Assembly: GCA_937996685.1 (NCBI GenBank)
Contig: CALKUP010000016.1
Location: 18,284-82,283 of the forward strand
DNA length: 64,000 nucleotides
DNA from: an uncultured bacterium
Lineage (GTDB): Bacteria; Patescibacteriota; Patescibacteriia; UBA9570; XYC2-FULL-38-9
Reading direction: 5' to 3'
The notes beneath the pieces were generated by a model, which saw only the letters and a list, made by a program, of their open reading frames with translations, made no database searches and was not told the origin of the DNA. Below are positions 4,428-61,800 of this stretch, piece by piece (the first letter of the stretch is position 1; each line of letters starts with the position of its first letter). The position numbers and the translations under genes are program-made.

Positions 4428-5810
4428 ATGCGAAGCATTCTCAAATTGTTCGCGGTGGTCGCCGCTCTGGCCTTCGCGCTCGCCTGCAATGGCGGGAGCA
4501 CGAAGGACAGCGCTTTCGACACGTCGGTCGACACCGACACGCCTTACGTGGACGATGATGCTGATCAGTGGTCACCTGATCAAGGCGACTGCGATGACAG
4601 CAACGCGGCCATCAACCCCGCTTCTGATGAGGTGCGGGGCGACGGCATCGACAACGATTGTGATGGTGCTGACTTGCGCCTGAGCTACTCTGATCCGACC
4701 ACGTACGGCGGGTACAACGGCTGGCTGGTCGAGTCCGCGGCTGGTACCGCCTTTAGCTGCTTCGCCAATGTCACGGCGGGCGTCGGCGGCGTCGTGCGGT
4801 GCTTGCCGCTTGAAGACAGCGCCAACGTGTTGGATCCGAGCGATGCGGCGGTCACCTTCACCGGTGATGTCGACATGACGCTTGGAACCGGAGGCTCCGT
4901 CTTCTCGGATCAGTACTTCTGTCTCGGTGGAAGTGAATTCAACGCCGAGAGGGGTGTCATGGGTTGCTGGGGTCTTGGAATCCTGGATGTTCCGGGTGAC
5001 TACACCTTCGACGACGCGGTCTTCACCATCTCCGGTGTGAATCCCGGGGATTATGTTGACCGCCACTGGTGGGCGGACGTCACCGGAGACAACCGCATCG
5101 ACCTCGTCGTCAGCGGCGGCGCCCGCTACTGGGTCTTCGCAGACCTGATGTCCCTTTCTGGGGGTCTCACGCTCGACGACGCGGTCTTCTCGGTAGACAT
5201 CTGCCCGCAGGGAGGCTGCACCATCTTCGTGGGCGAGGAGGCTGCGTTTGCTTTTCCCGCGAATGCGCCGACCATGGTCTTCTCCGATTACCAGCAGGAG
5301 ACGGCGCCAACCGGCCAGGGCGTGCTCTACGCTATGGACCTTCCGCTCACCCCCGCTTCTCAGCCGGTTGAGATCGATCGCGCTCGGCCGGGTCATGTTC
5401 TTGGTTTTCGTGTCGCTACCCTCGAATTCGGGTCCGTGTATTACGTTACGACCGGCACCGGCTTCCGGGAGTACCTGTACGACGGCGCCTCCTGGACGGT
5501 TGAGGAACATGACCTTGGGTTCTCAACCTTGATTCCATACGACGTTGGCATGGACTGGTTCAGGTGCGAATCGGGCATGGCGCTGGCTGTTACCGAGGTT
5601 GAGTCTGGGCAAGGGCTCATCTTCCAAAATGGAGCCGTTCAGGCGACCATCCTCTTGGAGGTTGGCTGTGGCACGGTCGTGTACGGCGAAGAAAACGGTT
5701 CTCATATCCTGACGATGTGTCAGGATCTGGGTGATCGGAACCAGGGACGCGCGCCCTCCGGTGACGGCGGGAACGTGTACCAAGTGGAAACCTTGCATTC
5801 GCCTCTCTAG
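4428..5810 (+). CDS. GC-rich putative lipoprotein with MopE-like Cys/Asp metal-binding motif and FG-GAP/VCBS-like region
   Basis: Lipoprotein signal (LAFALAC). DQGDCDDSNAAINPASDEVRGDGIDNDCDGADL resembles the 'putative metal-binding motif' of MopE-type proteins. HWWADVTGDNRIDLVVSG is FG-GAP-like. Local GC is far above the flanks. Confidence 0.5.
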   Translation: MRSILKLFAVVAALAFALACNGGSTKDSAFDTSVDTDTPYVDDDADQWSPDQGDCDDSNAAINPASDEVRGDGIDNDCDGADLRLSYSDPTTYGGYNGWLVESAAGTAFSCFANVTAGVGGVVRCLPLEDSANVLDPSDAAVTFTGDVDMTLGTGGSVFSDQYFCLGGSEFNAERGVMGCWGLGILDVPGDYTFDDAVFTISGVNPGDYVDRHWWADVTGDNRIDLVVSGGARYWVFADLMSLSGGLTLDDAVFSVDICPQGGCTIFVGEEAAFAFPANAPTMVFSDYQQETAPTGQGVLYAMDLPLTPASQPVEIDRARPGHVLGFRVATLEFGSVYYVTTGTGFREYLYDGASWTVEEHDLGFSTLIPYDVGMDWFRCESGMALAVTEVESGQGLIFQNGAVQATILLEVGCGTVVYGEENGSHILTMCQDLGDRNQGRAPSGDGGNVYQVETLHSPL

Positions 5811-8808: not shown

Positions 8809-9786
8809 TTATTCCGCTTGCCGAGTTTTAATATTCCATTTTTTTACAACGCCCGCACGATGTTTTGTTGAGCATTCTTCGCTGCATGCACCGTTGCTAT
8901 CTTCAGCGCACGTATCACATAAAATCACCATTTTGTTACATTCTGCGTTTGAGCAGTTGTAATAGGTGTCACAGGCAGTGTCACAAAAGTCACAAGTGGA
9001 AATAATTGTGTGATGTTCGTCATCATTGAGTTGGACTTGGGTGCGATCATCAAATACATACAAACTGCCTTCCCATAAACCATCTGGAATTTCCGCAGTG
9101 TAATTCACAATGCCGTCTTGGAGTGAATAGACCTCTTCCGCTTCTTTGAGTGAGTCAACGTAGATCGATGATTTTTCACAACGAATATTTCCATTGCAAT
9201 ACATCAAGACTTTTTTGCCGCGGACCACGTCTTTGTGCTGATCCATCCATTCTGGAAAATCACGGAAGTGGTCAATATCTGGTGTGATCGCATTTTTGAA
9301 TCGACCAATGCGCGCTTCAAAGTTGTTTCGGGCATCGAGAATAACGACGTTATCTTCTTGCATCATGTCGTGAAATTCTTTCGGGCTCAGTTTTTGTGGG
9401 ACGATTGTTTCGTCATATTCTTTGGCTTTTCCAGATGCGACAATTTCTGAACGGACTTTGACGCGAATGCCAGGGAACGGATTTTTGTGATAATACTCTT
9501 TTTTGAAAAAAATATCAGAAAAGCGTGGGTCAGCATGCATGGTGCGGATATATTCTTCTGTGTCTGCATCCAGTCCAGCCAGGGTTCCGTTGATTCCTTC
9601 TGCACTAATCAGGGTTCGGCCCTTCAAATTGAGTTGCGCCATGAGTGTCTTTTGGGAGTCACGCAGCGCTTCAGGATCGGCAATATCGGTGTATTTATAA
9701 AACAACAGAATGGTGTATGGTCGGTCGGGTGTTTGGATGTCAGCTTTCATAGAAATAGAGTGTACTATGACTTGACATTTTGTCAA
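8809..9786 (-). CDS. UPF0176/TrhO-like rhodanese-domain protein (tRNA U34 hydroxylase family) with Cys-rich C-terminal extension
   Basis: N-terminal ILLFYKY...LKGRTLISAEGINGTL. Rhodanese core ...VLMYCNGNIRCEKSS. C-terminal tail with ~12 Cys (CDFCDTACDTYYNCSNAECNKMVILCDTCAEDSNGACSEECS). Alternative start MKADIQ at 9750. Confidence 0.65.
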   Translation of the reverse strand: MTKCQVIVHSISMKADIQTPDRPYTILLFYKYTDIADPEALRDSQKTLMAQLNLKGRTLISAEGINGTLAGLDADTEEYIRTMHADPRFSDIFFKKEYYHKNPFPGIRVKVRSEIVASGKAKEYDETIVPQKLSPKEFHDMMQEDNVVILDARNNFEARIGRFKNAITPDIDHFRDFPEWMDQHKDVVRGKKVLMYCNGNIRCEKSSIYVDSLKEAEEVYSLQDGIVNYTAEIPDGLWEGSLYVFDDRTQVQLNDDEHHTIISTCDFCDTACDTYYNCSNAECNKMVILCDTCAEDSNGACSEECSTKHRAGVVKKWNIKTRQAE

Positions 9787-9866
9787 AAATCAGCTACAGA
9801 AGCGATAGCTCACACCATGCACAGGCAATGATTGCTTGTTGTTTCCGTGGGTGTTCTGAGGATTTA

Positions 9867-10682
9867 ATGTCTGCTCCCTTCGTTGTCATCGAGGGTGCTC
9901 GGGTTACCCGTCAGCCGCAGTGGCTCGGGCTCATGGACGGGGCGTTGCTTCGTATCGGTGAGGAGGTTCACTTGGACGGGAATCGGCATACCGTCCCGAT
10001 CATCGGGCTGTCTGGACCCGAGGCCCGTGTTGGGCTTGATGCCGCCCATGTCACGTTCAGTCACTCCGGGCGATACGTCGCTTGGAGTGTGGGCATGACC
10101 TTGTTGGTCTTTGACCGAAATACCGGCGCGACTTTTGAAGTTCCGCTGTCTACGACGGAACGAAGCGTCACTGTACATGGGGTCAAGTGGATCGGTGAAA
10201 GCGAGATTCATGTGGACTGCACAGGATCGTGCGGACACCGGTGTCAGCAGTACCTTTTCTACAAGGGCCTGTCGTATAAAACATCCGCGCTTCCAGAAGC
10301 GGTTAAGCCGCTGGTGCTGGACGACCGGACTTCGCATGAGTTTCAGCAGACGACGCATGCGGCATTTAGTGCAAGGCTGAATGCCTTTGACGCTCGAACG
10401 GGGCTGATGGCCGCGGTCATCAAACCGGGCGAGTTGACTGTCTGGGACCTTGAGCGGTGGATCCGGCATCAGCTCGGAACCAACTTCAGCACCTACCAGT
10501 TGGGAGGTCTGGAGATGACCACCCCCAACTCGCACATCATCCACTCCCTTGAGTGGCTTCCGGGTAAGGTGCTCAGGGTCGCGGTCGCGCGGGTTGAGAG
10601 CAACCCGAATCCCGCGTTCGACGTGAGCTGCGTCTATAGCAACGGCGTATGGCACGCTGAGTTGTTGGAGCTTCGGTTCTAA
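9867..10682 (+). CDS. hypothetical protein (GC-rich island)
   Basis: In-frame ATG at 9867 with a GAGGA SD. Plus-strand composition is protein-like (W/F/Y/H-rich). The overlapping minus-strand ORF is the Arg-rich antisense. No recognisable domain. Confidence 0.45.
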   Translation: MSAPFVVIEGARVTRQPQWLGLMDGALLRIGEEVHLDGNRHTVPIIGLSGPEARVGLDAAHVTFSHSGRYVAWSVGMTLLVFDRNTGATFEVPLSTTERSVTVHGVKWIGESEIHVDCTGSCGHRCQQYLFYKGLSYKTSALPEAVKPLVLDDRTSHEFQQTTHAAFSARLNAFDARTGLMAAVIKPGELTVWDLERWIRHQLGTNFSTYQLGGLEMTTPNSHIIHSLEWLPGKVLRVAVARVESNPNPAFDVSCVYSNGVWHAELLELRF

Positions 10683-14510: not shown

Positions 14511-14619
14511 ATTCACTTCTTCCGTCTTTTTGCTGAATTTGCTATAGTATAAATAATACTATTTCCGCAAACATGTGCGAGATTTGCTCGTAATACGTTT
14601 GATTATTTTTATCATCACT

Positions 14620-17600
14620 ATGGGAAGAACAACAAAAGAAGGGCGTAGAGAAAAGGTGTCAGAACCAGAAGATCAAAGACTGGCTCGCTTGGAAAGACGG
14701 CGTGTAGTAGACAAAGCAAGGCGTGAGAAAGAGAAAGCTGCTAAAGCAGCGTCCTTAGAATCAAATACAGGGACAGTGGCTGAGACTCCGACTTCAGACC
14801 TTGTTATTTCTGCCGAGGTCCCTGAAGCTACTGAGCTGATAACGAGTCCTGCTGCTACTCCTTTAGGGCCTACTCCAGCAGACCCACAACCAGTAGCGCC
14901 AGTCGAGCCTCCTGAAAAGACTGATTCTAAAACAGGTTCAGGTAAAGGAAGGCGAGATGATGATCCTCGTGATCGAAATTTGCGAAAGTCAGAGCGATCT
15001 GAAGCCGTTGATTATTCAAAGCCAAAAAATAATCTTGGTCGGGTGTTATCTTTTTCCACGGTCATTCTTGATGAACCCACTAATACAGTGCTTGTTCCAG
15101 TTGCGGTAGAGGGAGCGGAAGTGATTGAAGTACAAATTATTTATCCAGAGTTTGATAAGTTTGATGTTAAAAATCATGCTGATGCACCATATCTTGGTCA
15201 GCAGAAGATTCGTATTGTTGGTGTTACAGAAGCGGCAGAATCAAAAGATGGAAAAGTGCATTATCGGGCTATTTTAGAGAAGTGGCGAGAGAATTTTGTT
15301 GCAGAGCAAGCGCGTGTAGAAGAAGAAAATGATCAATATCTTCCAGGTGATCGTATTCACAATGTGTCGCTGGTTCTGAATCCTTCAAGAAGAGCGCCAA
15401 GTCGGTTTTTTGTTGAGCGTGAACGCAATGACAAAAAAGAGCGATTGTATATTCAAGCTGGAGCGTCAAGTATTCCGGATCCTGCCGATCCTACAGCTCT
15501 GAGCGGTCAATATGATATTGAGGTTTTGTCTTGTGCTGGTACAAAAATTGAACAAGACGGTGTTCCTGTTACGCTGTATCAAGCAATGATTGTTGAAAAA
15601 ACTGACCCGACAAGCATTGAGACTAAATATGACGCTGAGACTCTGAAGCGAGAATTGCACACTAAAAAAGATGCCGATCGTGTAGATCAGATTAGAAAAT
15701 TGCCACGTAAAAAAAGTGATTTCCCCGCACCAGATAGAATTATCGCTGATAATAACATTTATTTTACTGTCAATATAGGCTCAAAAGACGATGAATTGAA
15801 TGGGTACTTTATCCATGAAGGAAATAACAAATTTCTCGCAGTGCGATCTTTGTTGAATCTTTTGGACTCTCAATCTGGGCAACGGTTGGAATTTTTTCCA
15901 TCAGCAGAAGTCGCTGTGCTTGGTGAGTTAGGGAAGAAAAGAGAAGGTCGGCCTGTTTTTGAAGGAGTATTTCAGCACGATGTTGAATTCATTGGATATG
16001 TCAGGTCTTATGAAGAGATACTTCGAAGTCATGAAGGTATCTTGCGTTACATTGATACACTGACACTTGATGAAGTGCCTGGCGATGCTCAAAAAACGCT
16101 CATACGCTCTATTCAAAAAAAGCGATCAAACATGATGCGTATTGTGTCTGAAATGGGCAAAGGGATGCGCGGTTCAAGAGTATTGCGAGAGTTTTTAGAC
16201 GATTTTCGCTCTAACAGTGTGGAGTTGAATATTGCTTTGAGTACTGCCGAGCAACAATTTGGCTCGAAAATCAACACGGTAGAACAAGCTGAGCACCATG
16301 AAGATGATCTGTTTTTATTTGAGTTGGGCGCGTATGAACGTCGTCACCCAAGTCCGTCTATTGAAGTGATGCATCAGCGTCGTTTGGATTTGTACAAACA
16401 ATTAATTGATAATGAAGTTCAACGGAAGCCTGGAACGCGTCTTGCGTATCAAGCATTACAAGCTGAAATTGCGCAACGTAATCATGAAAGTGACATGGGG
16501 CGACATGGACGGATTCGAGGCTTGCTTGCTTGGGCAAAAGCATATGCTGAGCGTTTTCCAAGAATGTTTGATGCTCAACCTGCAAGTGTTGATGCTGAAG
16601 CTGAGAAACCAGTAGCTGCTGCCGTGTCAAAAGCTGAGGCTGACAATTCAGCAGGCGTTGTTGAGGCACCGAAGGTCGAGGTTACTGCTCCAGCCCCAGG
16701 ACCTGCTCTCGCAGGAAGTGCAGTAGAAGCAGCGGAAGCAGTGTCGCCGCCTACCGTTGAAAAAGTAGAGACTCCAGCAACACCTACAGCACAAGCGTTG
16801 TTTACTGAAAAAGATTTTGACCCGGCAATTGATAACGGCTTTGAAGATGGAACAACCATTTTGGTCCAGATTCCAGGCTTTGGATATGAGCTTGACGGAC
16901 AAATGGTTCGTCCAGATTATTTGGTGATTACTTATTTTGACGACGCTTCAGGACAAATGCAAGCAACGCCGTATTTCAACGGAGTGCCAGCAGATCGGCC
17001 AATCGCATTTACGTATAGTAGTCTAGAAGCGTTTAGTCAGATTCGCGCTGTAACAGAAGCAGAAGTGCTGACTGTGAAAACAGTCGTGCCTGAGCCTGAG
17101 GCAGCGCCAGCTCCAGTTGCTGTGGAAGCTCCTTCGGTAGATTCCTTTGAGAGTGATGCATCTTTCGTTGCTCCAGAAGTAAAAGAGCGGTTACAAGATC
17201 AAATTAAAGAGCTTGCCGCACGATTATCACGTCTCGGTGTTTCGGTAACTGAGGATATATTGCTGCAAAGTGCGATACTGCGGAGATCTCCTTCTCTCGA
17301 AGGCGGTGATCATGTTTCATGTCGAATAACCTTTGATTCGCCACGCAATATCCCATTACCTGAAGCGCTTAAAGTTAAAGACGAATCTAATAGTGACATT
17401 TATGAGGGTCCGGTATTTATCAATTCCTTGGTGATGTATAATATAGATAACGTAAAAAGTATTGATGCATGGATTATTGGGTTGTCAGATGCAAATGGTG
17501 AACAGCGTGTAATGAGTGTGTCAATTGTTGAATTAGAAAAATTAATCAACGCTAAACAGTTGCCGGCAGAATATGATGCAAGTGGATTGCGGCTTGTTGA

Positions 17601-18684
17601 TTCAACTAGCAGAATTGCAACCGCATCTGAAGCTGATCGGAATGCTAAAAATTTTTGGGGTGATGATGATTCTTCAGAATCAGGTTGGTCAACAGCAGCT
17701 GATGCTGCAGAAGCGCCTGTTGATGTTAATGAGTCAGAAGTTTCAGAAGACAAAAAAGCTGAACTGCGAGCTAAAATGGAAGAGGTCTTTCAAAGACTTA
17801 AGGCCCTTGGCGTTGTTGTTGGTGATGTACAGTCTCTATTAGAAAACGCAATTTTTAGGACAAGTGGTGTGTATTCAGGTGGATATATCTATTTACATTC
17901 TCTGGGTAATCAAAATTTACAAATTAGCCTTCCGAGGGCTATTGAGCGACAAGCAGATGCATCTGCTGCCCACCGCTTTGAAGGTGTGCTGACTATTAAT
18001 AGCTTGTTTCTAGGGTCTGGGGAAGATGTTGCTGACTGTGAGATGCAGCTGGATTCAGATCAGTCATCGTGGGAATTTCGTCTTTCTGAATTAGAAGATT
18101 TGATTACTAATGGAAATATTTCAGAATCTCTAGAAAGGTGGGGTTTTCGCTTTGTTGAGTCAGATAGTGCTGCGCCTGCGGAAGTAGCGGCACCAGTAAA
18201 AACCGAAGCACCGAAAAAGCCGGACGCAGTAGCAGCGGTTCCATCGCTTGAATCTATTTTGCCGGCTGGAAAGACAATTGATCGGTATGTCGCTGAGCTG
18301 CGACCGCGTGCTGCTGAAATAAAGAAAATGATTACAGATACTCTTGGCATGTGGCAAATGATCAGATTAGCTGGACGAACAGGTGAATTACAAGCGCTTG
18401 TTCCAGAATTAACTGAATTACTTGATCGAGTGACGGTGGCAAAAAAAGCAATTCGTGATAAACGAAAAAGAACGGATTCAGATCCTGAGATTATTACAGC
18501 TCATACGGCTGAATTACAATTTGTTCAAGAGTTGTCACAGCTTTTTTCAGATCAAGGAATTCGTGGAATTGCAGCAAGTGCAGATACGGTTAACAATTTT
18601 ATTGATAAAAAGTTGCCTGTATTGAAGGGTAAGGCAAAGAAAATAGTAGAATCATACGATGCTATTACCCGCACCATGAAGTAA
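14620..18684 (+). CDS. giant (1355 aa) hypothetical cytoplasmic protein with P/A/E-rich linkers and an internal ~140-aa tandem duplication
   Basis: ATG at 14620 (MGRTTKEGRREK...). The track ORF starts at 14575. No signal peptide, basic N-terminus. Low-complexity linkers (PTPADPQPVAPVEPPE, APAPVAVEAPS, AAPAEVAAPVKTEAPKKP). Repeat 1 ~nt 17176-17600 and repeat 2 ~17749-18170 align (RL..LGV.V.....LL..AI.R.S ... EG...INSL...). Confidence 0.6.
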   Translation: MGRTTKEGRREKVSEPEDQRLARLERRRVVDKARREKEKAAKAASLESNTGTVAETPTSDLVISAEVPEATELITSPAATPLGPTPADPQPVAPVEPPEKTDSKTGSGKGRRDDDPRDRNLRKSERSEAVDYSKPKNNLGRVLSFSTVILDEPTNTVLVPVAVEGAEVIEVQIIYPEFDKFDVKNHADAPYLGQQKIRIVGVTEAAESKDGKVHYRAILEKWRENFVAEQARVEEENDQYLPGDRIHNVSLVLNPSRRAPSRFFVERERNDKKERLYIQAGASSIPDPADPTALSGQYDIEVLSCAGTKIEQDGVPVTLYQAMIVEKTDPTSIETKYDAETLKRELHTKKDADRVDQIRKLPRKKSDFPAPDRIIADNNIYFTVNIGSKDDELNGYFIHEGNNKFLAVRSLLNLLDSQSGQRLEFFPSAEVAVLGELGKKREGRPVFEGVFQHDVEFIGYVRSYEEILRSHEGILRYIDTLTLDEVPGDAQKTLIRSIQKKRSNMMRIVSEMGKGMRGSRVLREFLDDFRSNSVELNIALSTAEQQFGSKINTVEQAEHHEDDLFLFELGAYERRHPSPSIEVMHQRRLDLYKQLIDNEVQRKPGTRLAYQALQAEIAQRNHESDMGRHGRIRGLLAWAKAYAERFPRMFDAQPASVDAEAEKPVAAAVSKAEADNSAGVVEAPKVEVTAPAPGPALAGSAVEAAEAVSPPTVEKVETPATPTAQALFTEKDFDPAIDNGFEDGTTILVQIPGFGYELDGQMVRPDYLVITYFDDASGQMQATPYFNGVPADRPIAFTYSSLEAFSQIRAVTEAEVLTVKTVVPEPEAAPAPVAVEAPSVDSFESDASFVAPEVKERLQDQIKELAARLSRLGVSVTEDILLQSAILRRSPSLEGGDHVSCRITFDSPRNIPLPEALKVKDESNSDIYEGPVFINSLVMYNIDNVKSIDAWIIGLSDANGEQRVMSVSIVELEKLINAKQLPAEYDASGLRLVDSTSRIATASEADRNAKNFWGDDDSSESGWSTAADAAEAPVDVNESEVSEDKKAELRAKMEEVFQRLKALGVVVGDVQSLLENAIFRTSGVYSGGYIYLHSLGNQNLQISLPRAIERQADASAAHRFEGVLTINSLFLGSGEDVADCEMQLDSDQSSWEFRLSELEDLITNGNISESLERWGFRFVESDSAAPAEVAAPVKTEAPKKPDAVAAVPSLESILPAGKTIDRYVAELRPRAAEIKKMITDTLGMWQMIRLAGRTGELQALVPELTELLDRVTVAKKAIRDKRKRTDSDPEIITAHTAELQFVQELSQLFSDQGIRGIAASADTVNNFIDKKLPVLKGKAKKIVESYDAITRTMK

Positions 18685-20011: not shown

Positions 20012-20402
20012 TGGTGGAAATGACGGGACTCACACCCGTGTCTCGCTCGTGAAACATATATCATCTCCATGCTCAGATCGTTTGGTAATTTCGATAATGA
20101 AAACAAAAACGAACAAATGGTTCAGTATCTATCTTTGAGAAATGTCCATTACGCGCCAAAGAATCACGGAATGTAAGTCGCGGTTAAAGTGATACCGCAG
20201 GCAGTCGTAGCGACGTCAGACTGCGGCGATAGTTGCAGAATTTAGGCTGCAACAGGAGCCAATTCAAAAGACGCAAGCTTTGCAGCGGCAGTCTTCAAAC
20301 GGCTAGTGAAGTTTGCACTTCGAATAGTGAGATGTTTTACGAGAACCTCAACTCGACATGCAGATATATGTTGTCAATGAACGGTCAACGATAAACATCC
20401 CC
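20012..20402 (-). ncRNA. ssrA: tmRNA (SsrA), 391 nt
   Basis: Minus-strand RNA. 5-prime GGGGAUG pairs with 3-prime CAUUUCC-A-CCA (G3:U70 wobble as in tRNA-Ala). T-arm ACGGG-UGUGAGU-CCCGU. Internal tag frame GCA AAC UUC ... GCU CCU GUU GCA GCC UAA encodes ...FELAPVAA*. Sits immediately downstream of smpB. Confidence 0.8.
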
Positions 20403-20893: not shown

Positions 20894-21158
20894 TGTGGCA
20901 GTATACGCGAGAGAGTGCGAAAAATCAACGATTTTCTGTTTATTTTCATGAATCTCTTTTTTGGCGGTATATCCATTGACAAAACAGGTGAAAAAGTGTT
21001 AGGTTCTTTTGATTTGCAATCAAGCAAATTGTTCGTTTTATTTATAGAGCAGGTGTATTTCTGTGGGCGCGCTGTGTGGCTGATTATGAAGTGATTCAGC
21101 AATAGAGCGCACTCACAGAAGCACGAATAACCGTGTGGTGACATGCAAGGAGGTATGC

Positions 21159-21641
21159 ATGTATCTTCGGCTTTGGAATTGCGAGAACCCCTTCGGACTC
21201 TCTTTTACGGACCTGTGCGTCCGTCTCGCCGAGAGAGACGATCCATACACGCTGTCGCTCACTGATCCCTCCGGTGCCGTCGTCAGGCTCAATGAGCGAC
21301 AGCTCAGGGATGGGCGGCCCTTCACCTTCTGCGAAGAAGGGGTCGGAATGACCCTGAGCCTCCTCTCTCATGAGGTGGGTCTTGGTTATTTTGATTTGAG
21401 CACGAGTGAGGATCAGCCGCTCCTGCCGGATCAGATCGCGCGAATTGCCGCACGTTGGTACATTGATGGAGTGGATGAATTGATTCTTCAGGTCGAGTCG
21501 AGCAAGGACCAGTCGCGAATCAGCTCCAAAGAAAGGAAAGAGGTGATCGACGCCTTTATCCGGCTCTGGTCAAGTGATCGCCGTCTTCCTCTGCTTGCCA
21601 TCGACGGCGAGGACGTGAATTGGGAACTCGTCACGCGGTAG
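21159..21641 (+). CDS. hypothetical protein (GC-rich island), paralog of 21878..22450
   Basis: ATG at 21159 with an AAGGAGG SD. C-terminal ...KERKEVIDAFIRLWSSDRRLP resembles ...EKRRAIVRAFIELWPQLARGKP in the next gene. Confidence 0.5.
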   Translation: MYLRLWNCENPFGLSFTDLCVRLAERDDPYTLSLTDPSGAVVRLNERQLRDGRPFTFCEEGVGMTLSLLSHEVGLGYFDLSTSEDQPLLPDQIARIAARWYIDGVDELILQVESSKDQSRISSKERKEVIDAFIRLWSSDRRLPLLAIDGEDVNWELVTR

Positions 21642-21877
21642 TTTTTATTGTGCGGGCTACTTAAAACATAGCCCGCACCAGAACTACCGCAGCACCTGCT
21701 CATTTTTTCTCAGTAAATCTCACGCAGATTTTTTGAGAAAAGATTGAATTATATTCGATCTGTTCATTTTTAATTTAGAGCAGACACGCTTTGTGGGTGA
21801 GATTTTGCATTGATGTGTATTATATTGATGCTGGATTTCACTCACAGAGCACGTTCGTCGTGCAAAGGAGAGATGCG

Positions 21878-22450
21878 ATGTTTGTTTACATCGGTCACGC
21901 CATCACTTGGGCTCAATTGTGTCGTCGATACCGCAGTCCGCATGGTGGAGACCCGTACGGTCTTCATCTTCCTGTTGATCGATTGGATTGGAAGCTGACT
22001 CGTAAGCAGCGGTCGAGCGTCGTAGACGGCATCTACGTGGTGAGTGAGCATCAGGCTCGAACCTGGGCAGAGTTCACCATCAACGATGGCGCAGGAGGTT
22101 TGTTCTTCAGTTGTGAGGAGAGCGCAGGAGGCTTTTTCGAGCTTGTTGGTTCTGACGACCGGCAAGGGGCTAAGGATGGCGCTGAGTTCACTCCTGAGTT
22201 TATTGTCGGGGTTTGCGCGGATTTCACGGAGATCGGTGGTCCTGCGCTTGAGGTCGACGTTGAAGACTTCTACGGCCATTCGCCTGACGATGAAGATTGG
22301 ACTTTCAAAGACGATCCTGAGAAGCGCCGCGCGATCGTGCGCGCCTTCATCGAGCTGTGGCCGCAGCTCGCTCGGGGCAAGCCCATGCCCAAGCTCAAGA
22401 TCTGCGGGAAGCGGATCCGCTACGGCGCGTACCCTAAGCACCCCTGGTAG
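21878..22450 (+). CDS. hypothetical protein (GC-rich island), paralog of 21159..21641
   Basis: ATG at 21878 preceded by AAAGGAGAGA. Acidic and W/F/Y-containing, protein-like. The antisense ORF 21842..22510 is judged spurious. Confidence 0.5.
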   Translation: MFVYIGHAITWAQLCRRYRSPHGGDPYGLHLPVDRLDWKLTRKQRSSVVDGIYVVSEHQARTWAEFTINDGAGGLFFSCEESAGGFFELVGSDDRQGAKDGAEFTPEFIVGVCADFTEIGGPALEVDVEDFYGHSPDDEDWTFKDDPEKRRAIVRAFIELWPQLARGKPMPKLKICGKRIRYGAYPKHPW

Positions 22451-22653
22451 CGTTCCTTCGGACGAATGAACGATTGACGAACTTTGAGGACTTGCGCAAC
22501 GCACCCTCAAAACCGTCAGTGCCTGCTCATCGTCTCTGAGTACGTCTCATGTAGATGTGTTGAGAGACGATTACAATGAAAAATAAAGAACTTACTAGAG
22601 TTTCGTGGTCTTTTTTGGTATACTCGAAAGAGTTATTATTGATTGATTTTATT

Positions 22654-23613
22654 ATGCTCGTCCCAGGAAAATTATTACTCGATCACGCGTTTGCAAATCA
22701 GTATGCTGTTGGAGCGTTCAACGCAAACAACATGGAGCAAGTGCAAGCGATTATTGACGCGGCAGCTGCCACGAACTCGCCAGTCTTTATTCAGGTGTCA
22801 CGTGGTGCGCTCGAATATTCTCGGATGACGTATTTGCGAAATATTATTCTTGCGGCGGTTGAAGAACATCCGGAAATTCCTGTTGCGATGCATCTTGATC
22901 ACGGCAGCGATCTTGAAATTGTGAAACGCGCGATTGAACTTGGGTTTACATCAGTGATGATTGACGGGTCGCTTGATCCGACAGGCAAGCGTGCTTTGTC
23001 GTTTGAAGAAAACCTTGCAGTGACACAATCCGTATTGGAGTATGCACGTCCGCTGGGAGTGACGGTTGAAGCAGAGCTTGGAACGATTGGCGGCGTTGAA
23101 GATGAAGCTGGGGTTAACGCGATTCATTACACCGATCCCGCCCAAGCTGAATTATTTATGAAAGAAGCGCCAGTGGATTCATTGGCGGTTGCGATTGGAA
23201 CTGCGCACGGGGCAGTGAAGTTTGAAGGTGAATGTATTTTGCGCCATGATTTATTGCAAGAAATTCACAAACGATTGCCGAATACACCGCTTGTGATGCA
23301 TGGTAGCTCGTCAGTGCCAGAAGAGTTAGTTGCGCAAGTAAACAAATACGGCGGACACATGCCGAATGCGAAAGGTGTCGACATTGAACAGTTGCAGCAA
23401 ACAACACAATTTGGTGTTTCGAAAATCAATGTTGATACAGATGGTCGCATTGCTGTGACAGCTGCAATTCGAAAAATATTTGCAGAAAAGCCAGAAGAGT
23501 TCGATCCGCGAAAATATCTTGGACCTGCTCGCGATGCGCTGACAGAAGTTGTGAAAGCGCGGATGATTGCATTTGGTGCGGCAGGACATGCATCAAAGAT
23601 TTCTCAGTCATAA
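22654..23613 (+). CDS. fba: fructose-bisphosphate aldolase, class II
   Basis: MLVPGKLLLDHAFANQYAVGAFNANNMEQVQAIIDAA...MHLDHGS... Start moved to the in-frame ATG that aligns with the class II FBA N-terminus (the track ATG at 22576 adds 26 aa). Confidence 0.8.
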   Translation: MLVPGKLLLDHAFANQYAVGAFNANNMEQVQAIIDAAAATNSPVFIQVSRGALEYSRMTYLRNIILAAVEEHPEIPVAMHLDHGSDLEIVKRAIELGFTSVMIDGSLDPTGKRALSFEENLAVTQSVLEYARPLGVTVEAELGTIGGVEDEAGVNAIHYTDPAQAELFMKEAPVDSLAVAIGTAHGAVKFEGECILRHDLLQEIHKRLPNTPLVMHGSSSVPEELVAQVNKYGGHMPNAKGVDIEQLQQTTQFGVSKINVDTDGRIAVTAAIRKIFAEKPEEFDPRKYLGPARDALTEVVKARMIAFGAAGHASKISQS

Positions 23614-25917: not shown

Positions 25918-26011
25918 TGAAAAAATAGTTGATCTTTGTCAAAAAATGGGCATCAAAAGCCCGTTCAGAGAAGCAAAAAAAATCCAACCCTTGAATAAAG
26001 AGAGGTTTGCC

Positions 26012-27292
26012 ATGAGCAAATTCGTTTTCGTGCCCCACGAGTCGACCGAGGCTGCTCCCCGGGTGATTCCCGAGGGTTGCTCGCCCGCTTTGGCGCGGTC
26101 GGTTGCTGTCATGAATGAGCTGAGTCTCCAAAGCATCACCTCGCAGGCGCGATTTACGGCCGCCGGTGCTGAGGTCGGCAAAATCCAGATCCGAGCGGTC
26201 TGGGTGCTGGTCGCCGTAACGGTGGTCAGCACACTCATGTCTGCGGGTGCTGGCGGGCTTGGTATTCACCTTCAGGCGGAAGGTTTGGAGTCAGCGTTTT
26301 CGTTTCTCGCGCCGAGCGCTTGCGGCGCAGCGCTCTCGGCGCTGCTCTGGCACCGTGCGGAGCACCGGGCGAAGGCTTTGGGTGCGCCAGAGCTCGGAGA
26401 GCAGTGGCGCAACTATTGCGCCGCGCGGGAGGCGCTGCGCAAAGCGATTTTTCTGTACCGAGCCGGAGTGATTGATGCACGAAGACTGAGCATGGTTTTG
26501 CGGCAAGTGTGCCTACAGGTTTGGGCGGCATCCCCACCTACCGACGAGGAGCTCTTCGCTCGTTGGCAAAGCGAGCAAGACCGATACCTCTTCGAGGATG
26601 GTGACGATGGGTTTTCGAAATTGGAGCTGGATCATTACGTCCAGCTCCGGACTGAAGGCCAGAAAGTCTGGATGGACGGAAGGCTAAAAGGCAAGCTCGC
26701 GAAGCTGCGTGAGGTGCACATCGCCCGTTTGCGCCAGATTCAGCTCTGGCAGGCGAGTGTCCGGTGGCTGCCATTTATTGGCGAAGCGGTTAGTGCACTC
26801 ATTGGTCGCCTGAGTTTGATTGAGGATCAGCGCTATGAGTGGCTGGCGGTCGAGAAGACCATTGCCGGCTACACTGAGGTCATCGAACAGATGGCCACGC
26901 CGCTGACTGCCTACCAAGAGTTTCTCATGCACTGTGCGGAAGCGCTGTGTGAGAAACTTGCAGAAGGCGATGCTGACAAGGCTCTGTATATTCACGGGAC
27001 CCTTGAGGGATTCGTCGGCCTGCCTCAGTTGACGCGTAAGATTGCTGAAGCGTTTGTTGCAGAGCGTTTCCCTGGCTCAGAGGAAGCGTTTACTGCCTGG
27101 AAGGAAGCGGAGCGTAAGTTCCTCCCCGAGCTGGCAAAGGTCACCGAGAACATTCTCGGTGCCGAGCACGCCGATTGGCTGCGCTTTCGCGTTACCGCAA
27201 CCAATAGCCTCGAGCAAGCGCTTTCGAGTATCTTCCTCCGCGGCGTCGCGGAAGGTGCTCCAAGCGGCGAAGGCGCAGAAGTCCCCGCATAG
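26012..27292 (+). CDS. hypothetical protein (GC-rich island)
   Basis: ATG at 26012 with an AGAGAGG SD. 426 aa and helical. The 3-prime end (…GEGAEVPA*) lies inside the first copy of a 133-bp repeat. Confidence 0.5.
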   Translation: MSKFVFVPHESTEAAPRVIPEGCSPALARSVAVMNELSLQSITSQARFTAAGAEVGKIQIRAVWVLVAVTVVSTLMSAGAGGLGIHLQAEGLESAFSFLAPSACGAALSALLWHRAEHRAKALGAPELGEQWRNYCAAREALRKAIFLYRAGVIDARRLSMVLRQVCLQVWAASPPTDEELFARWQSEQDRYLFEDGDDGFSKLELDHYVQLRTEGQKVWMDGRLKGKLAKLREVHIARLRQIQLWQASVRWLPFIGEAVSALIGRLSLIEDQRYEWLAVEKTIAGYTEVIEQMATPLTAYQEFLMHCAEALCEKLAEGDADKALYIHGTLEGFVGLPQLTRKIAEAFVAERFPGSEEAFTAWKEAERKFLPELAKVTENILGAEHADWLRFRVTATNSLEQALSSIFLRGVAEGAPSGEGAEVPA

Positions 27293-27399
27293 ATACGCAG
27301 GGCGATTCGCTGGAGATACCAGTTCTTCAGCGAATGACAACCGCCAGTTCCCGTCGACGCAGGTCAACGGAGAATTTCGGCGGTTTTTTCTTATAGAAA
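27266..27399 (+). repeat. direct repeat copy 1 (~133 bp) containing inverted repeat + hairpin/T-tract terminator
   Basis: ggcgaaggcgcagaagtcccCgcAtag...gcgattcgctggaga...cagcgaatgacaaccgccagttcccgtcgacgcaggtcaacggAgaatttcggcggttttttcttatagaaa. About 90% identical to 28296..28428. Confidence 0.8.
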
Positions 27400-27679
27400 A
27401 GAAGGAGGGATACATCTTGACAAATGAGGTTTATATACGTATGGTATTGAGTCTATTTTCTCTATAGAAAATAGCTGGTCTTTGAACCAAATAGTGAGCG
27501 TTTTAGTATCGTTTGCAGTACACAGTCAAGGAATCAAACATCTTCGTTATCAAGAAGGTTGTTGATTCTCTATTGTGTGCTGTGAACGATCGCGTGAGTC
27601 TAACCCGAAAATCACTTCAGGTACGACACACTCGAGCTTGCTCAGCATCACTGCGGTTTGTCCGCATGTGGAAGTACTC

Positions 27680-28276
27680 ATGGCTCGCTCTAATAGAAAT
27701 TCCCAGGCATTGGATACCTTGCTCACCGCCCTCCGCAATGCCGGAGGTGAAGTGCTTAAGGAGGAGCGGTTGTTGCATCTGCTCTGTGATCCTGCAATAG
27801 CCAGTAGGTTGGCGCAGGACTTGGTGTGTACGCACCTGCAGCGTCAGAAATCCCTCCCTCGGGTGGAGGACCTGGTCATCAGCAACACGATCATTACGGT
27901 CTACTACCGGGCTGATGGTTCCGAAGAAGGTCATTACGACCACCTCTTTCCCTTTCAGTACTTCCCTAAGAAGGTGCGTGTTCGTTGGGTAGAACTGCCT
28001 TACGGATTTGGAGCTACTACGTCCGATGTTGCAAATCATCTCCGTGCAAGAGGACTTGATGCCCCCGTTGACGTGGCGGTGGTGAAGGCCCTTCTTCTTC
28101 ATGTGAAACGAATGAACTTTATGGTCTTGTTGCGAGACAAGGCCTATATCTGGGATCCGAGCGTTCCGAACAAGGTGGTGAGCCGGTTCAATCGAGACAC
28201 TGAGCTGAATCAGGAAGCGCTCAATGGGTCCGCGACCTTCATTGGCATCGTCGATGTCGAGGTGCTCGACAAATAG
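27680..28276 (+). CDS. hypothetical protein (GC-rich island)
   Basis: In-frame ATG at 27680 (MARSNRNSQALDTLLTALRNAGG...). No recognisable domain. Bracketed by the two repeat copies. Confidence 0.45.
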   Translation: MARSNRNSQALDTLLTALRNAGGEVLKEERLLHLLCDPAIASRLAQDLVCTHLQRQKSLPRVEDLVISNTIITVYYRADGSEEGHYDHLFPFQYFPKKVRVRWVELPYGFGATTSDVANHLRARGLDAPVDVAVVKALLLHVKRMNFMVLLRDKAYIWDPSVPNKVVSRFNRDTELNQEALNGSATFIGIVDVEVLDK

Positions 28277-28295
28277 CCCTCGGTGTTCCTCAGGC

Positions 28296-28428
28296 GGCGA
28301 AGGCGCAGAAGTCCCTGCGTAGACAGCGGGGCGATTCGCTGGAGACACTAGCTCTTTAGCGAATGACAACCGCCAGTTCCCGTCGACGCAGGTCAACGGG
28401 GAATTTCGGCGGTTTTTTCTTATAGAAA
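28296..28428 (+). repeat. direct repeat copy 2 (~133 bp) with hairpin/T-tract terminator
   Basis: Begins 20 nt after the stop of 27680..28276. The 3-prime half is near-identical to copy 1, including ...tttcggcggttttttcttatagaaa. Confidence 0.8.
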
Positions 28429-30449: not shown

Positions 30450-31319
30450 ATGAAACCGACATTTCCAATTGAGGACACAAAAGACTTGGCATTGATGGCG
30501 AATACAATTCGTCAAGATTTATTGAAGGCGATTCATGCCGCGGGTTCTGGTCATCCAGGTGGATCACTTGGGATGGCAGATATTTTTACAATCTTGTATT
30601 TTCATGCGCTGCAGCACGATCCAAAAAAACCGTTATGGACAAAACGCGATCGTTTGGTGCTCAGCAACGGACATATTTGCCCGGTGTTATATGCGACAAT
30701 GGCGCATGCTGGATATTTGTCGATTGATGAGGTGATGACATTACGCAAAATGGGGAGTCGCGTTCAAGGACATCCGCATCGTGAAGAAATTGCAGGATTG
30801 GAAACCAGCTCCGGCCCATTGGGCTCTGGTTTGTCACAAGCTGCTGGAATGGCAATTGCCGCAAAGATGGATGACGCGGGCCATACAGTATTTGCATTAA
30901 CATCAGACGGTGAGCATCAAGAAGGGAATACTTGGGAAGGTGTGATGCTGGCTGGAAAATATCAACTCGATAATCTCGTGCAGATTATGGATCGCAACTA
31001 TATTCAAATTGACGGGAACACGGAAGATGTGATGCCGCTCGATCCAGTGCGTGAAAAATATGAAGCGTTTGGCTGGTGGGTCACAGAAGTTGATGCGCAT
31101 AATTACAAACAAGTGATGAATGCGATTGATCAAGCGAAAAATGTGAAACATAAACCAGCGTTGATTGTTGCGTATACGGTTCCTGGAAAAGGTGTGTCAT
31201 ATATGGAAGATCAATATGGCTGGCACGGAAAAGCGCCGAGTGACGCGGAATTAGAACAGGCTCTTGCTGAGCTGCAAGACATTCGCGCGCAGATCGAAAG
31301 TGGTACCTATGAATATTAA
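30450..31319 (+). CDS. transketolase, N-terminal (TPP-binding) subunit
   Basis: GSGHPGGSLGMADIFTILYFHAL...SNGHICPVLYA...GPLGSGLSQAAGMA. Split two-subunit arrangement. Confidence 0.85.
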   Translation: MKPTFPIEDTKDLALMANTIRQDLLKAIHAAGSGHPGGSLGMADIFTILYFHALQHDPKKPLWTKRDRLVLSNGHICPVLYATMAHAGYLSIDEVMTLRKMGSRVQGHPHREEIAGLETSSGPLGSGLSQAAGMAIAAKMDDAGHTVFALTSDGEHQEGNTWEGVMLAGKYQLDNLVQIMDRNYIQIDGNTEDVMPLDPVREKYEAFGWWVTEVDAHNYKQVMNAIDQAKNVKHKPALIVAYTVPGKGVSYMEDQYGWHGKAPSDAELEQALAELQDIRAQIESGTYEY

Positions 31320-31322
31320 TTG

Positions 31323-32318
31323 ATGTATATGCCTATTAATCCTCTTGTAAAATTATCAAAACATTGGAATACACCAGACGCGTTGGAAAAGCTTGGGACA
31401 CGCGACGGCTTTGGGAAAGGTTTGGTTGAAGCGGCGAAAAAGCACGCAGATATCGTGGGCCTGACAGCAGACCTTGGTGAGTCGACACGGATGCATTTAT
31501 TTGCAGAAGCGTTTCCAAATCGCTTTATTCAAGTTGGTGTTGCCGAACAAAATCTTGTGACTGTCGCAAGTGGTCTCGCAGCAGGTGGAAAAATTCCATT
31601 TGCCAGTGGCTTTGGCGCGTTTACGCCAGGTCGCAATTGGGAGCAAATTCGAACAACGATTTGTTACAACAATCAGCCAGTGCAAGTTGTCGGGACTCAC
31701 ACTGGTATTACTGTTGGTGAAGACGGCGCAACACATCAAGTGTTAGAAGATATTGGATTGATGCGGATGTTGCCAAATATGCGTGTCATTGTTCCAGCAG
31801 ATGCTGAGCAGGCGCGAAAAGCGACATTGGCAATGGCAAAAAATCCAAAGCCGACCTATTTGCGTTTAGGTCGTGAAAAGTTTCCGACGTTCACAACAAA
31901 AAGTACACCGTTTGAAATTGGAAAAGCGGACGTCTATTATCGTGGTTCAGATGTGACGATTATCGCGGCCGGCCCGCAGGTGTACGACGCGTTAATGGTC
32001 GCAGTCGCGTTGAAAGGCACAGTTGCGGTTGAGGTGATTAACATGCACACCATTAAACCATTTGATCTTGAAACAGTATTGAAGTCAGTCAAAAAAACCG
32101 GCGCAGTTGTGACAGTGGAAGATCATCAAATTGCTGGCGGTCTTGGCGGTGCGGTCGCAGAGCAGCTCGCACTGCATTTGCCAGCTCCAATGGAATTCAT
32201 CGGTGTTCATGATGCATTTGGTGAATCCGGAACAGCAAAAGAATTGCTTGAACATTTTCACATTACACAAAAAGATATCATCAAAGCGATTCATTGTGTT
32301 CTTGCTCGGAAAAAATAA
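31323..32318 (+). CDS. transketolase, C-terminal (pyrimidine-binding/C-terminal domain) subunit
   Basis: ...RDGFGKGLVEAAK...GVAEQNLVTVASGLAAGGKIPFASGFGAF... Confidence 0.85.
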   Translation: MYMPINPLVKLSKHWNTPDALEKLGTRDGFGKGLVEAAKKHADIVGLTADLGESTRMHLFAEAFPNRFIQVGVAEQNLVTVASGLAAGGKIPFASGFGAFTPGRNWEQIRTTICYNNQPVQVVGTHTGITVGEDGATHQVLEDIGLMRMLPNMRVIVPADAEQARKATLAMAKNPKPTYLRLGREKFPTFTTKSTPFEIGKADVYYRGSDVTIIAAGPQVYDALMVAVALKGTVAVEVINMHTIKPFDLETVLKSVKKTGAVVTVEDHQIAGGLGGAVAEQLALHLPAPMEFIGVHDAFGESGTAKELLEHFHITQKDIIKAIHCVLARKK

Positions 32319-58831: not shown

Positions 58832-61800
58832 TTGATATATTGTATATATATGACATCTTTTGATAGATTTCCCCGCGAAAAAAAATCAGACCCAACTGAA
58901 AGAGTTCTTGATGCTTCTGAGCAATCATATTTGAATGCAACTGCTGATATTGCTGAACAGCGATATGCAGCAGATTATGGATTTTATCCAGAAAGTCACT
59001 CGGTTACGCATTATTTGCAAGACTTGCTCGATCGATCGATTCCTGAAGATGAGCGAGGTCATTATACAATAAAAGTAACGCAAGGGTGGGAAGAATTCAA
59101 TGCAGGTGCGTTGCCAAATGGTACGATTTTGATATCTGATAGAATGTTGACCTATTGTCAGTATGAAGAAGAGCTGCAGTTTGTGTTGCGGCATGAATAT
59201 ATGCATATTGCGCGACAGCATCATGCGCTTTCTTATCGGAAGCATAAAAGAGTTGATGGAGGTAGTGTCATTGATGCCTTGTATCAAGATATGGGTCAAA
59301 TGCGATTGCATGAGTATGAGGCAGATTTGCGTGCAGGAGTCGATGATAAAGATTTGCCATATAATCTATATGGGGGTATTCGTTTTTTGGAGCGTTTAGT
59401 AGAAACAGAGCGAGCAACAAAGCAAGCAAGTGGCATTGTGCACGGTGATACAATGGATCGATTATTAAACCTCCATTTTGTAACTCGCATGGTTGATAGC
59501 GCAGCGCTCAATCGTGACCTTACTAAAATTTCTCCTGAAATTATTGCAGAACTTGAATCGAAGCGCTCTTTGAAGTCCATTGTTTTTGAGCGGCCATTAG
59601 GGAAGGGTCATATAACTCCTGAGTCTATTGCAGAAACAGCAAAAGCAGCACTGCGGGTTGCGACACCTGACCAGCTGCAAATTATTATCCCTGAATTATA
59701 TAACTATATTTCAGAGCTTGAGGTTGGTGCTCGTAGTGGACGTAGTTCTACCTCAAGGACATATGATTTAGATGTGCGCACTGAATTGCTGCAGGTTGCA
59801 ATAGAGCGCATGGCAACTGTTTTGCAAGAAGAATTAAAAACCGTGCCAGCTGCAAATCGTCCAGCATTGCGAGGTTTGTATGCGGGGCTTGTGTACGGGA
59901 TCTCGCCTGATTCAGTAGAGGATACAAATATATTTAACGGCATGTTCGACTTCTTTGAAGATGTAGAAGATTTTTTACAATTACCGGCATTGCTCGACAG
60001 TATTGCAGAGAGGGGTGTGTATCCAAATCAAGCACCAGAAATACTACTCCGTTCAATTATACGAGAAGCAGGGGCTGCCTCTGTATTTGTTGATGAGGAC
60101 GATCTATTTAGTGAGCAAAAATTTACTGACTATTGCCGTGATGTTGTTGCTGCAGTTGATCGATTGTACCAATATAAGTCAGACTACAAAAAAACAACAC
60201 TGATCGCTGCCTTTATCGCAGAAGCTTTACTCGATCTTTCGTCGGATGAGCAAAGTGATTTTGTGGTAGTTGCTGCAAAAAATTTATCGATAAAAGTAGA
60301 GGATGTTATTTTATATGCAGAGAAGTATTTGCATATTTCTCTGAAGGTTTTGCCCAATGCAGATGTAAGTGTGCCTGAAACAGAGGAGTCTATTTTTTGG
60401 AATCGCATCTATGCTGTGTGTCGTGAAATCAAGTACATGGACTCAGCACCTTCTAAGGCTCCAGTAGTGCGTGCTTCTCTTGAAAAAACGAAATCTCGCC
60501 GAGAACTATTCAATGAATTAGAAGATATGTGTTCTCAATTGCCTTGGAATACAATGCAAGAGTGTGTGGATGGATTTTCCCGTCTTGTTGAGGGCGAATT
60601 GTCTGCTGAGCAAGAAGTATTTCTTGAGGTTGTTTCTACGTACCCATCTGTACTTCTTAGTCCAGAGCGTTTCACTGGTGTGTCTACTGCTAGAATGTTA
60701 AAGCATGTGCTAGAGCTGCAAAATAACCCATATATGAATCCTGGTGAAGGCGCAGTCTGCCTTGTCGATATTATGACAGGAGCGTATAACAACCGTCTTT
60801 TTGACCCAAGTTTATTAGAATGGGGCATTACAGAGCATGATCTTACCGTTGAGCAAGTACACGCTGCAATGTTTGCGGAAGATCCAGATTCAGCTATTGG
60901 TACGCATTACGATACGAGTGTATCTAGCTTTGACGCATTATACAGGAGTTATTTTTTTACCGTAGCGACGCACGAACTACGTCATTTATCACGCGCGGAA
61001 TTTTTTCAAAAATTACGTGAACGAGCTTCTATAAAACCGAAAGAAGGTAATATTTCTCAAGCATTGATTTTTGTGAACGAGGTGTTTGATGCATATTCAT
61101 TTTCATTAACAGACAAATCATCATTGGATGAATTATTAACGTTGAGCGTGTATGTCCCTGACTTTGAATTGTCAAATCGTTTACAGGAAGGTGTTATGGC
61201 GGCATTATTTCAATATTCAGATACAGCTGAATTAGAAGAAGTATTATTTCGAGATGAGCGAACTCGATATTTGCTTTTAGCAAATGCACGGCATCAATTT
61301 ATTGACGAACGATTAAATACACCAGCGGCTTTAGATCGTACGCTTGATATGGTGCGTCGTGATCGCCTGATTGAAGATCAAGTATTACAAGAGCGGGTGA
61401 GTGACGCGATTCTTGCAGAGGAATCCTTGAGTCGATTATTGCGTAATCCGAGAATGTTTATAGAAATTGGATTGAGCACACAGTCTTCAGATTACAATTT
61501 AAAAAAAGAATTACTTACCGCAAGTCTTTATGCATCTACTCATTCTGAAACAATTAATGACTCGTCCGATCTTGACCGGTTGCAGAATCTAGATTTAATC
61601 ATACGTCGTTTATATGAAATGGATAAATCGACAAAACATGCTGTTATTCGAAAGTTGTTTGTTGGCGAGCACGGCTTATTAAACGATTCAAAGGAGTTGC
61701 AAAAATTTATTACAACGATGTGCAGTGAGCACATCATTGAGCCTCGAGATGATTCTGAGGCCGCTTTGCTTTCAGGTGTAAAAGATGCTCTTATTGCTGT

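Follow-up and report, generated by a model that had tools for sequence, protein, structure and literature searches.

Two diverged tandem genes with structured leaders and trailers between smpB and fba in an uncultured bacterium

Two neighbouring orphan genes, here called A and B, lie between smpB and fba in a 64-kb stretch of DNA from an uncultured bacterium (the window; all positions are window coordinates). Gene A (21159..21641, plus strand) encodes a protein of 160 amino acids (aa) with an isoelectric point (pI) of 4.58, and its ATG at 21159 is preceded at a distance of five bases by the Shine-Dalgarno (SD) sequence AAGGAGG (21147-21153, plus strand). Its paralog, gene B (21878..22450, plus strand), encodes 190 aa with a pI of 5.69 from an ATG at 21878, with the last base of the stop codon at 22450; the SD sequence AAGGAG (21865-21870, plus strand) stands seven bases before the ATG. 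The divergent smpB gene lies upstream of the pair and fba downstream, and no further copies of A or B were found within the 64 kb. A preliminary description had placed two adjacent SD-preceded genes at 21159-22450, and these coordinates are exact. It had also described both proteins as acidic, tryptophan-rich and free of a signal peptide, which agrees with the pI values, with tryptophan contents of 2.5% in A and 3.2% in B (window median 0.76%, 90th percentile 1.86%), and with N-termini that, by eye, have no hydrophobic signal-like segment. The high-GC block in which it set the genes is real as to the coding sequences (CDSs) but is not continuous: GC content is 0.55-0.60 within both CDSs (0.56-0.57 for each overall, about 0.44 for the genome), whereas the flanks and the AT-rich spacer between A and B have 0.37-0.45. 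The GC content at third codon positions (GC3) is 0.65 in A and 0.63 in B, compared with 0.31-0.42 for rplT, fba and smpB of the window.

The two proteins are homologous over their full length. BLASTP aligned them over 176 columns with 22% identity and E=6e-6, and their Smith-Waterman score of 69 (shuffles: mean 28.5, standard deviation 4.4) was reached by none of 2000 shuffles, so that the similarity lies well beyond that of shuffled sequence. The preliminary description had noticed a shared C-terminal motif and had proposed a locally duplicated gene family of unknown function. The likeness of the C-terminal parts is indeed significant when they are taken alone (0/2000 shuffles), but it is not limited to the C-terminus (N-terminal parts alone, 13/2000), and the proposal of a local duplication is borne out by full-length paralogy, with no match to a database family. 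At the DNA level the coding regions of A and B are no more similar than shuffles. In contrast, their leaders (A, 21009-21158; B, 21743-21877) gave a local alignment score of 180 against 88 +/- 14 for shuffles (0/3000, z=6.4), and their trailers (A, 21686-21745; B, 22512-22572) a Smith-Waterman score of 45 against a shuffle maximum of 27. Because leaders and trailers align while the coding DNA does not, the entire unit of 5' leader, CDS and 3' trailer must have been duplicated in tandem long ago, and since this ancient duplication the non-coding ends have been kept better than the coding middle.

The family is exceedingly rare. In a database of 5.8e9 protein clusters, a search with gene B returned its own protein (P0001, from a 155-kb NCBI contig) and one other, P0002, which is 69% identical, and gene A as query found no match, not even itself. 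Exact look-up in a collection of 15e9 proteins showed that A is absent and was never called by any pipeline there. An exhaustive profile search of 1.84e9 representatives of these ~15e9 proteins yielded two other members, P0002 and P0003 (E=1.6e-9 for the latter), and a second profile search of the 5.8e9-cluster database added none. The family thus counts about five known members worldwide, and the orphan status given to the genes in the preliminary description, which had proposed a search in other genomes, was if anything understated. At the DNA level, a degenerate pattern for the leader matched a single contig in 185,579 species genomes, and it matched none of the JGI metagenome contigs or IMG/VR viral contigs. 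In a metagenome scan based on smpB, the closest relative was 58% identical and the family was present in 0 of 27 loci; the nearest smpB relatives include contigs from 0.1-µm groundwater filter fractions.

Five contigs were available for comparison: L001 and L002 carry P0002, L003 carries P0003, L004 is the contig matched by the leader pattern, and L005 comes from the window's own strain. L001/L002, L003 and L004 share one arrangement, in which the start of smpB on the opposite strand is followed by the promoter-like pattern TTGACA-17-TATTTT, a hairpin leader and one family gene. After the family gene, L003 has the same trailer and fba upstream region as the window, and on the smpB side L004 has the transfer-messenger RNA (tmRNA) gene, infC, rpmI and rplT in the order seen in the window. 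The family occupies the smpB-adjacent site in all four related assemblies found. In the window the tmRNA gene (20012-20402, minus strand) lies directly downstream of smpB; it matched its Rfam model over the full length with 86 bits and was not reported by ARAGORN. Two of the contigs, from independent assemblies, end inside the locus. L004 (positions 1-315), a 143-kb contig of a metagenome-assembled genome, ends within the family gene. L005 (1 kb, positions 1-60) belongs to the same strain as the window, to which it is 100% identical over the shared stretch, and ends in the hairpin of the A leader; its coverage is 1.9, and the break may reflect low coverage alone. As regards fba itself, the long open reading frame (ORF) includes the region 22576-22653, and its start is probably later, near 22654 (MLVPGK...). 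The stretch that follows the upstream in-frame ATG at 22576 holds a stop codon in L003 and resembles an fba promoter region (ttttttggtatact).

Each unit begins with a long structured leader. For unit A, a promoter-like site (TTGACA, a 17-nt spacer and TTAGGT; 20976..21004, plus strand) in the divergent smpB-A intergenic region lines up with the TTGACA-17-TATTTT pattern at the same place in L001, L003 and L004, and is a putative promoter with a weak -10 element; no convincing promoter of its own was identified for B. The leader of A (21030..21158, plus strand) and the homologous leader of B (21762..21877, plus strand) both include the SD sequence, and the latter is 86-87% identical to the leaders of L001, L003 and L004. 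The long hairpin in the 5' untranslated region (UTR) of A (21058..21121, plus strand) has 26-27 bp, with an RNAfold energy of -49.1 kcal/mol for the leader (z=-4.9), and that of B (21788..21850, plus strand) has 29 bp including 9 G.U pairs (-45.1 kcal/mol, z=-6.5). The B hairpin has the most base pairs among all 70-nt segments of the 64 kb. Stems of 26-29 bp are present in all five leaders (A, B, L001, L003 and L004), each within a single hairpin of 60-67 nt, with RNAfold z-scores of -4.9 to -6.8. When the four B-type leaders were used to build a covariance model, the only site that it matched in the window, apart from B's own leader and the reverse complement of that leader, was the A leader (16.3 bits, E=0.11). 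In the alignment of the five leaders, the 26 pairs of a shared stem are 96% paired, and 8 of them are compensatory, compared with 1.7 expected; none of 500 shuffles reached 8, and slid controls were 36-50% paired with at most one compensatory pair. The 5' hairpin is, by this covariation, maintained through compensatory changes. B-type stems contain 7-9 G.U pairs, and because the pairing depends on them the fold is strand-specific: the minus strand of the B leader reaches only -20.5 kcal/mol, as against -45.1 kcal/mol on the plus strand. The modelled energies therefore point to a structure formed in RNA rather than to a DNA palindrome.

The 3' ends are structured as well. Unit A has a first hairpin (21650..21678, plus strand) with a 10-bp GC-rich stem and no U-tract, and a second one (21705..21741, plus strand) that is homologous to the last hairpin of unit B; the RNAfold z-score of the trailer is -7.0. 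The trailer of B (22451..22571, plus strand) comprises three hairpins (22451-22472, 22473-22520 and 22529-22571) and shares 88% identity with the trailer in L003; the fba upstream region comes next. The last hairpin (A, 21705-21741; B, 22529-22571) has 19 pairs that are 93% paired, with 3 compensatory pairs among three sequences (25/500 shuffles); these three sequences suggest compensation less strongly than in the 5' hairpin. In a search for Rfam cis-regulatory RNAs at the gathering threshold, only the tmRNA passed in the window, and the leaders gave sub-threshold matches resembling microRNA precursors.

In the B-type leaders, the stretch from about the hairpin apex on (21797-21877 in the window) is an open frame that runs on into the CDS without a change of phase (YIDAGFH.QSTF.VQ). 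Gene callers start from this stretch: they place the beginning of B at 21797, which gives the 217-aa protein P0001. The same stretch of the unit A leader contains stop codons.

Comparison of B with its ortholog P0002 in L001 (69% aa identity) gave a dS of 0.58 and a dN/dS of 0.33; for the same pair of genomes the background dS was 0.55 for rplT and 0.84-1.35 for smpB. The lowest dN/dS, 0.04-0.10, was found over residues 117-156. By these rates B is a real gene under purifying selection, and both A and B are real, protein-coding genes. The picture is different between L001 and the contigs L003 and L004. The smpB genes of L001 and L004 differ by a dS of 0.16 (44 codons), and the leaders share 93-94% identity. 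The family genes of L001 and of L003/L004 nevertheless have only ~27% aa identity, and their coding DNA is 60% identical, which is the alignment baseline. Judged from these distances, the coding segment must have been replaced, since point mutation cannot yield ~27% identity in the time available. The route would be one of three: relatives may have lost different members of an ancestral paralog array (A, B and a third type), gene conversion may have taken place, or strains may have exchanged the segment by way of the conserved flanks. L003 and L004 have the same sequence over their first 30 codons and differ strongly from about codon 65 onward, a pattern that looks mosaic but may be an assembly artefact because L004 ends there.

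No identity could be assigned to the proteins by similarity. Pfam gave no usable match to A, B or the other members, searches with PHROGs and against PDB sequence profiles gave no match, and neither did tblastn against phages and plasmids. Two weak leads were rejected: DUF7713 (PF24828) matched only A (residues 130-157) with 14.8 bits and E=0.021, below its gathering threshold of 24.1, and left the other three members unmatched; the PADLOC model Avs3b gave a single weak fragment on A (49 residues, 16.9 bits, E=0.0011) and no match on B. Structure prediction, which had been proposed as a check, was informative in part: the AlphaFold models of A (pLDDT 56) and B (pLDDT 65, pTM 0.63) have the same order of secondary-structure elements, but they are weak and matched no known fold. 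The invariant positions are few (R, several G, L, D, F..LW and P.L) and, as far as the alignment goes, do not look like an active site but are non-catalytic in character. Among the scanned ORFs, which are nearly all those of the 64 kb, no integrase, transposase, HUH enzyme, reverse transcriptase or toxin domain was found. The possibility that the genes are targets of a diversity-generating retroelement was rejected on the grounds that the scanned ORFs include no reverse transcriptase and that no repeat pair involves 21-22.5 kb. A literature search on hypervariable islands in Patescibacteria found nothing relevant.

The explanation that we favour, with a probability of roughly 40%, is that A and B are diverged tandem copies of one self-contained unit, which encodes a fast-diversifying, non-enzymatic cytosolic family at a recombination-prone locus and is controlled in its expression through structured UTRs. 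The unit consists of an AT-rich leader with a ~60-nt RNA hairpin of 26-29 bp, an SD sequence, a GC-rich CDS for 160-190 aa, and a trailer that closes with a conserved hairpin. Within a narrow group of uncultured bacteria, which probably resemble the Candidate Phyla Radiation (CPR), it keeps to one chromosomal position, between smpB and fba. At one time three or more paralog types (A, B, and the third type of L003/L004) may have stood side by side at the locus; they would have been lost, swapped or recombined via the conserved UTR sequences in a birth-and-death pattern. The persistently high GC3, which is 0.59-0.65 in every family member as compared with 0.31-0.47 for neighbouring genes (0.47 being smpB of L004), could come from frequent recombination via GC-biased gene conversion rather than from recent import. 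A non-enzymatic binding role is proposed because the family has no conserved residues that look catalytic, and the proteins would most likely be cytosolic binders in strain-specific conflict, that is, immunity-, defence- or anti-defence-like. The messenger RNAs (mRNAs) may be stabilised or processed through their terminal hairpins; the 5' stem is predicted to be long enough for RNase III and could serve to split an A-B co-transcript. Such a role at the mRNA level is made plausible by the stem of 26 bp or more that goes with each cistron, and by the fact that no convincing promoter of its own was identified for B.

Three kinds of known systems resemble the units in these respects. The first comprises stem-loops that are processed by RNase III or stabilise mRNA, such as those of the rnc and pnp leaders, the T7 early inter-cistronic sites and the ompA 5' stem-loop. 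Like them, the units have a long, near-perfect stem ahead of each cistron and a hairpin at the 3' end, with a fold that is strand-specific and upheld by compensatory changes. RNase III substrate leaders have a continuous double-stranded RNA stem of at least about two helical turns, which is found in all five leaders. The leaders differ in that they match no Rfam family, and cleavage and stabilisation are here predicted only. The second kind comprises the immunity arrays of polymorphic toxins and contact-dependent inhibition systems (CdiI, SUKH/SMI1-KNR4, Imm). A and B are likewise small, acidic and cytosolic, have no signal peptide and no conserved catalytic residues, and occur as tandem divergent paralogs, with versions only ~27% identical in the same frame in L001 and L003/L004. 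In those arrays, however, a toxin gene or a C-terminal toxin fragment lies directly upstream, whereas the neighbours of A and B are smpB and fba, with no toxin domain in the window ORFs scanned with Pfam; nor do A and B match a described immunity family by sequence or fold. A conflict or immunity-like role is thus suggested by analogy, and since there is neither a toxin neighbour nor a family or fold match, the analogy is offered in the sense that the units may work like immunity genes, not that they belong to them. The third kind comprises flexible genomic islets, or hypervariable metagenomic islands, with which the locus shares a fixed site between housekeeping genes, strain-specific content, assembly breaks and atypical composition. 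It differs from them in that its content is always one tiny protein family and that the hairpin-bearing non-coding frame is better conserved than the cargo.

Several points weigh against the explanation by diverged tandem units in conflict. No toxin, defence or phage gene adjoins A or B. The overall dN/dS, being below 1, does not demonstrate positive selection. The true start of the B-type genes is uncertain, because in L001 (320-345) the SD-proximal ATG is one base out of frame at a T7 run; the leader there has lost 1 nt, and 1 nt inserted behind the ATG makes up for the loss. Of the related contigs, three have a length of only ~0.9 kb, and the break of L004 inside the gene means that its mosaic 3' part is possibly artefactual. 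Finally, the arguments from covariation and from replacement rest on five sequences of about three independent types. Five rival explanations were considered, and none of them is better supported.

In the first of these, A and B are effectors that an episymbiotic, CPR-like bacterium secretes or delivers by contact and that evolve fast against a host. The family diverges fast and is lineage-restricted, the window has CPR-like content (DUF5671, DUF4012, a split transketolase and many large orphans), and the origin of some of the nearest smpB relatives in 0.1-µm filter fractions fits as well. But neither protein has a signal peptide or transmembrane segment in its sequence, no secretion-system gene adjoins the pair, and the CPR-like affiliation is itself no more than probable; we regard such effectors as unlikely.

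The terminal hairpins could instead act at the DNA level, as structure-specific recombination sites comparable to integron attC sites or the ends of IS200/IS605 elements, so that CDS modules are exchanged as hairpin-bounded cassettes. This would account for the almost exact coincidence of the variable segment with the CDS between hairpin-bearing flanks, for the conservation of hairpin structure rather than sequence, and for the assembly breaks at the locus; another GC-rich orphan in the window (27680-28276) likewise follows an AT-rich leader with a 25-bp hairpin, and it has 140-nt flanking direct repeats. Integron cassettes are similar, too, in being ORF modules of the same orientation with imperfect hairpins of 60-70 nt between them whose structure is kept above sequence. 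They differ from the units in several ways: integrons have an IntI recombinase with attI nearby, and no recombinase family was found among the scanned window ORFs, there is only one cargo family at A/B, the R''/R' core sites (RYYYAAC ... GTTRRRY) were not seen in the hairpin arms on inspection, and the hairpin stands before the ORF, not after it. The dependence of the B-type stems on 7-9 G.U pairs and the far weaker fold of the other strand are RNA-like, no transposase or HUH enzyme is encoded in the scanned ORFs, and the element occurs at this one locus and nowhere else in the 185,579 species genomes. Exchange through DNA hairpins is accordingly a doubtful proposition, somewhat less credible than delivered effectors.

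A recently acquired, foreign GC-rich island, brought in by plain horizontal transfer without special organisation, would explain the GC contrast between the CDSs and the genome and would be in keeping with several more GC-rich orphans in the window. The family lies, however, at the same site in all four related assemblies and in at least three related lineages, which argues against a recent import. The dS of the B orthologs is comparable to that of housekeeping genes, the UTRs are conserved and have host-like GC, no donor homolog exists among 15e9 proteins, phages and plasmids, and there are no mobility genes or att repeats at A/B. Islands that target the tmRNA gene ssrA have a deviant GC content as well and A/B likewise lies near smpB-ssrA, but the insertion point of those islands is the 3' end of ssrA, and they come with an integrase and a direct repeat of the ssrA 3' terminus, neither of which was found; the 3' end of the tmRNA gene faces infC, away from the units, which lie on the far side of smpB. 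The integron and ssrA-island readings were rejected because the window has no integrase or suitable repeats, and we consider an island of any recent foreign origin improbable.

In E. coli, ratA adjoins smpB. By position, A and B could be analogues of proteobacterial ratA/pasT, that is, a trans-translation factor co-regulated with the divergent smpB-ssrA genes, given that every member stands head-to-head with smpB across a common intergenic region, with the tmRNA gene just beyond, and that the weak top Foldseek matches include SRPBCC/PR10-like proteins. These fold matches are not significant (E >= 0.2, TM-scores of 0.15-0.30), and the SRPBCC/RatA lead was rejected, with no Pfam SRPBCC match at E up to 10; in contrast to RatA/PasT, the proteins have no Polyketide_cyc2/START-like Pfam match and no significant match to a helix-grip fold. 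A partner of the highly conserved SmpB would moreover not be expected to be swapped for versions 27% identical between close relatives, and a role of this kind is very improbable. That the genes are spurious or decaying ORFs in GC-rich DNA, as the absence of A from the protein collection, the start-frame inconsistency in L001 and long ORFs on both strands (such as a 222-aa antisense ORF over B) might suggest, is barely credible, since A and B are alike as proteins and not as DNA, share their predicted secondary-structure order and have good, well-spaced SD sites, since the dN/dS of B is low, and since the antisense frame is closed in L001 and L003.

The window has other features of a similar or unusual kind. 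At 27261-28428 lies a 1,029-bp unit flanked by direct repeats of ~140 nt (27261-27399 and 28291-28428), which are 91-94% identical and include sequence from the 3' end of the GC-rich orphan lying upstream (25946-27292), together with its terminator. Inside it are a promoter-like site (TTGACA-17-TATGGT), a 25-bp hairpin in an AT-rich leader (27516-27585) and the GC-rich orphan mentioned above, whose ATG is at 27680. This unit resembles the A/B design, while its protein and hairpin sequences are unrelated. GC-rich genes (0.58-0.61 versus ~0.44) with little or no Pfam match are also wedged among housekeeping genes at 4428-5810, 9780-10682 and 25946-27292; the product of the first resembles a lipoprotein at its N-terminus and bears one MopE-type metal-binding motif. 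Neither A nor B has a relative among the other GC-rich orphans of the window. Two very large ORFs occupy 14575-18684 (1,369 aa, without a Pfam match) and 58832-63205 (1,457 aa, with an M48 peptidase region and an ABC1 atypical kinase domain). Beside an rpiB-like ORF, two adjacent ORFs at 30450-31319 and 31320-32318 resemble, by eye, a transketolase split into N- and C-terminal parts; together with proteins of the DUF5671, DUF4012 and DUF4430 families, they give the window a CPR/Patescibacteria-like flavour.

A more specific form of the tandem-unit explanation, which we hold as doubtful as the DNA-hairpin cassettes, is a modular expression cassette, in which the structured UTRs would serve both as elements of RNA processing or stability and as homology handles for swapping divergent conflict-protein modules at the smpB site. 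The cassette at 27.4-28.4 kb is similar in design, and the lineage would then have in such units a general means of carrying and exchanging GC-rich orphan genes.

The family is a case of protein dark matter, with about five sequences among 15 billion and no fold match, that nevertheless bears signs of function in its purifying selection, its SD sites and its own conserved, structured UTRs. The usual pattern of conservation appears to be reversed in it, with a non-coding frame that is conserved and a coding insert that is exchanged between close relatives; this reversal would be the mark of a locus of conflict or variation that is prone to recombination, in a lineage that is little known and probably CPR-like. 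As well as an experimental handle, the hairpins offer a structure and sequence search key for more units. If the design proves general, it would give new insight into the way in which a reduced genome maintains a limited stock of variable genes that can be exchanged.

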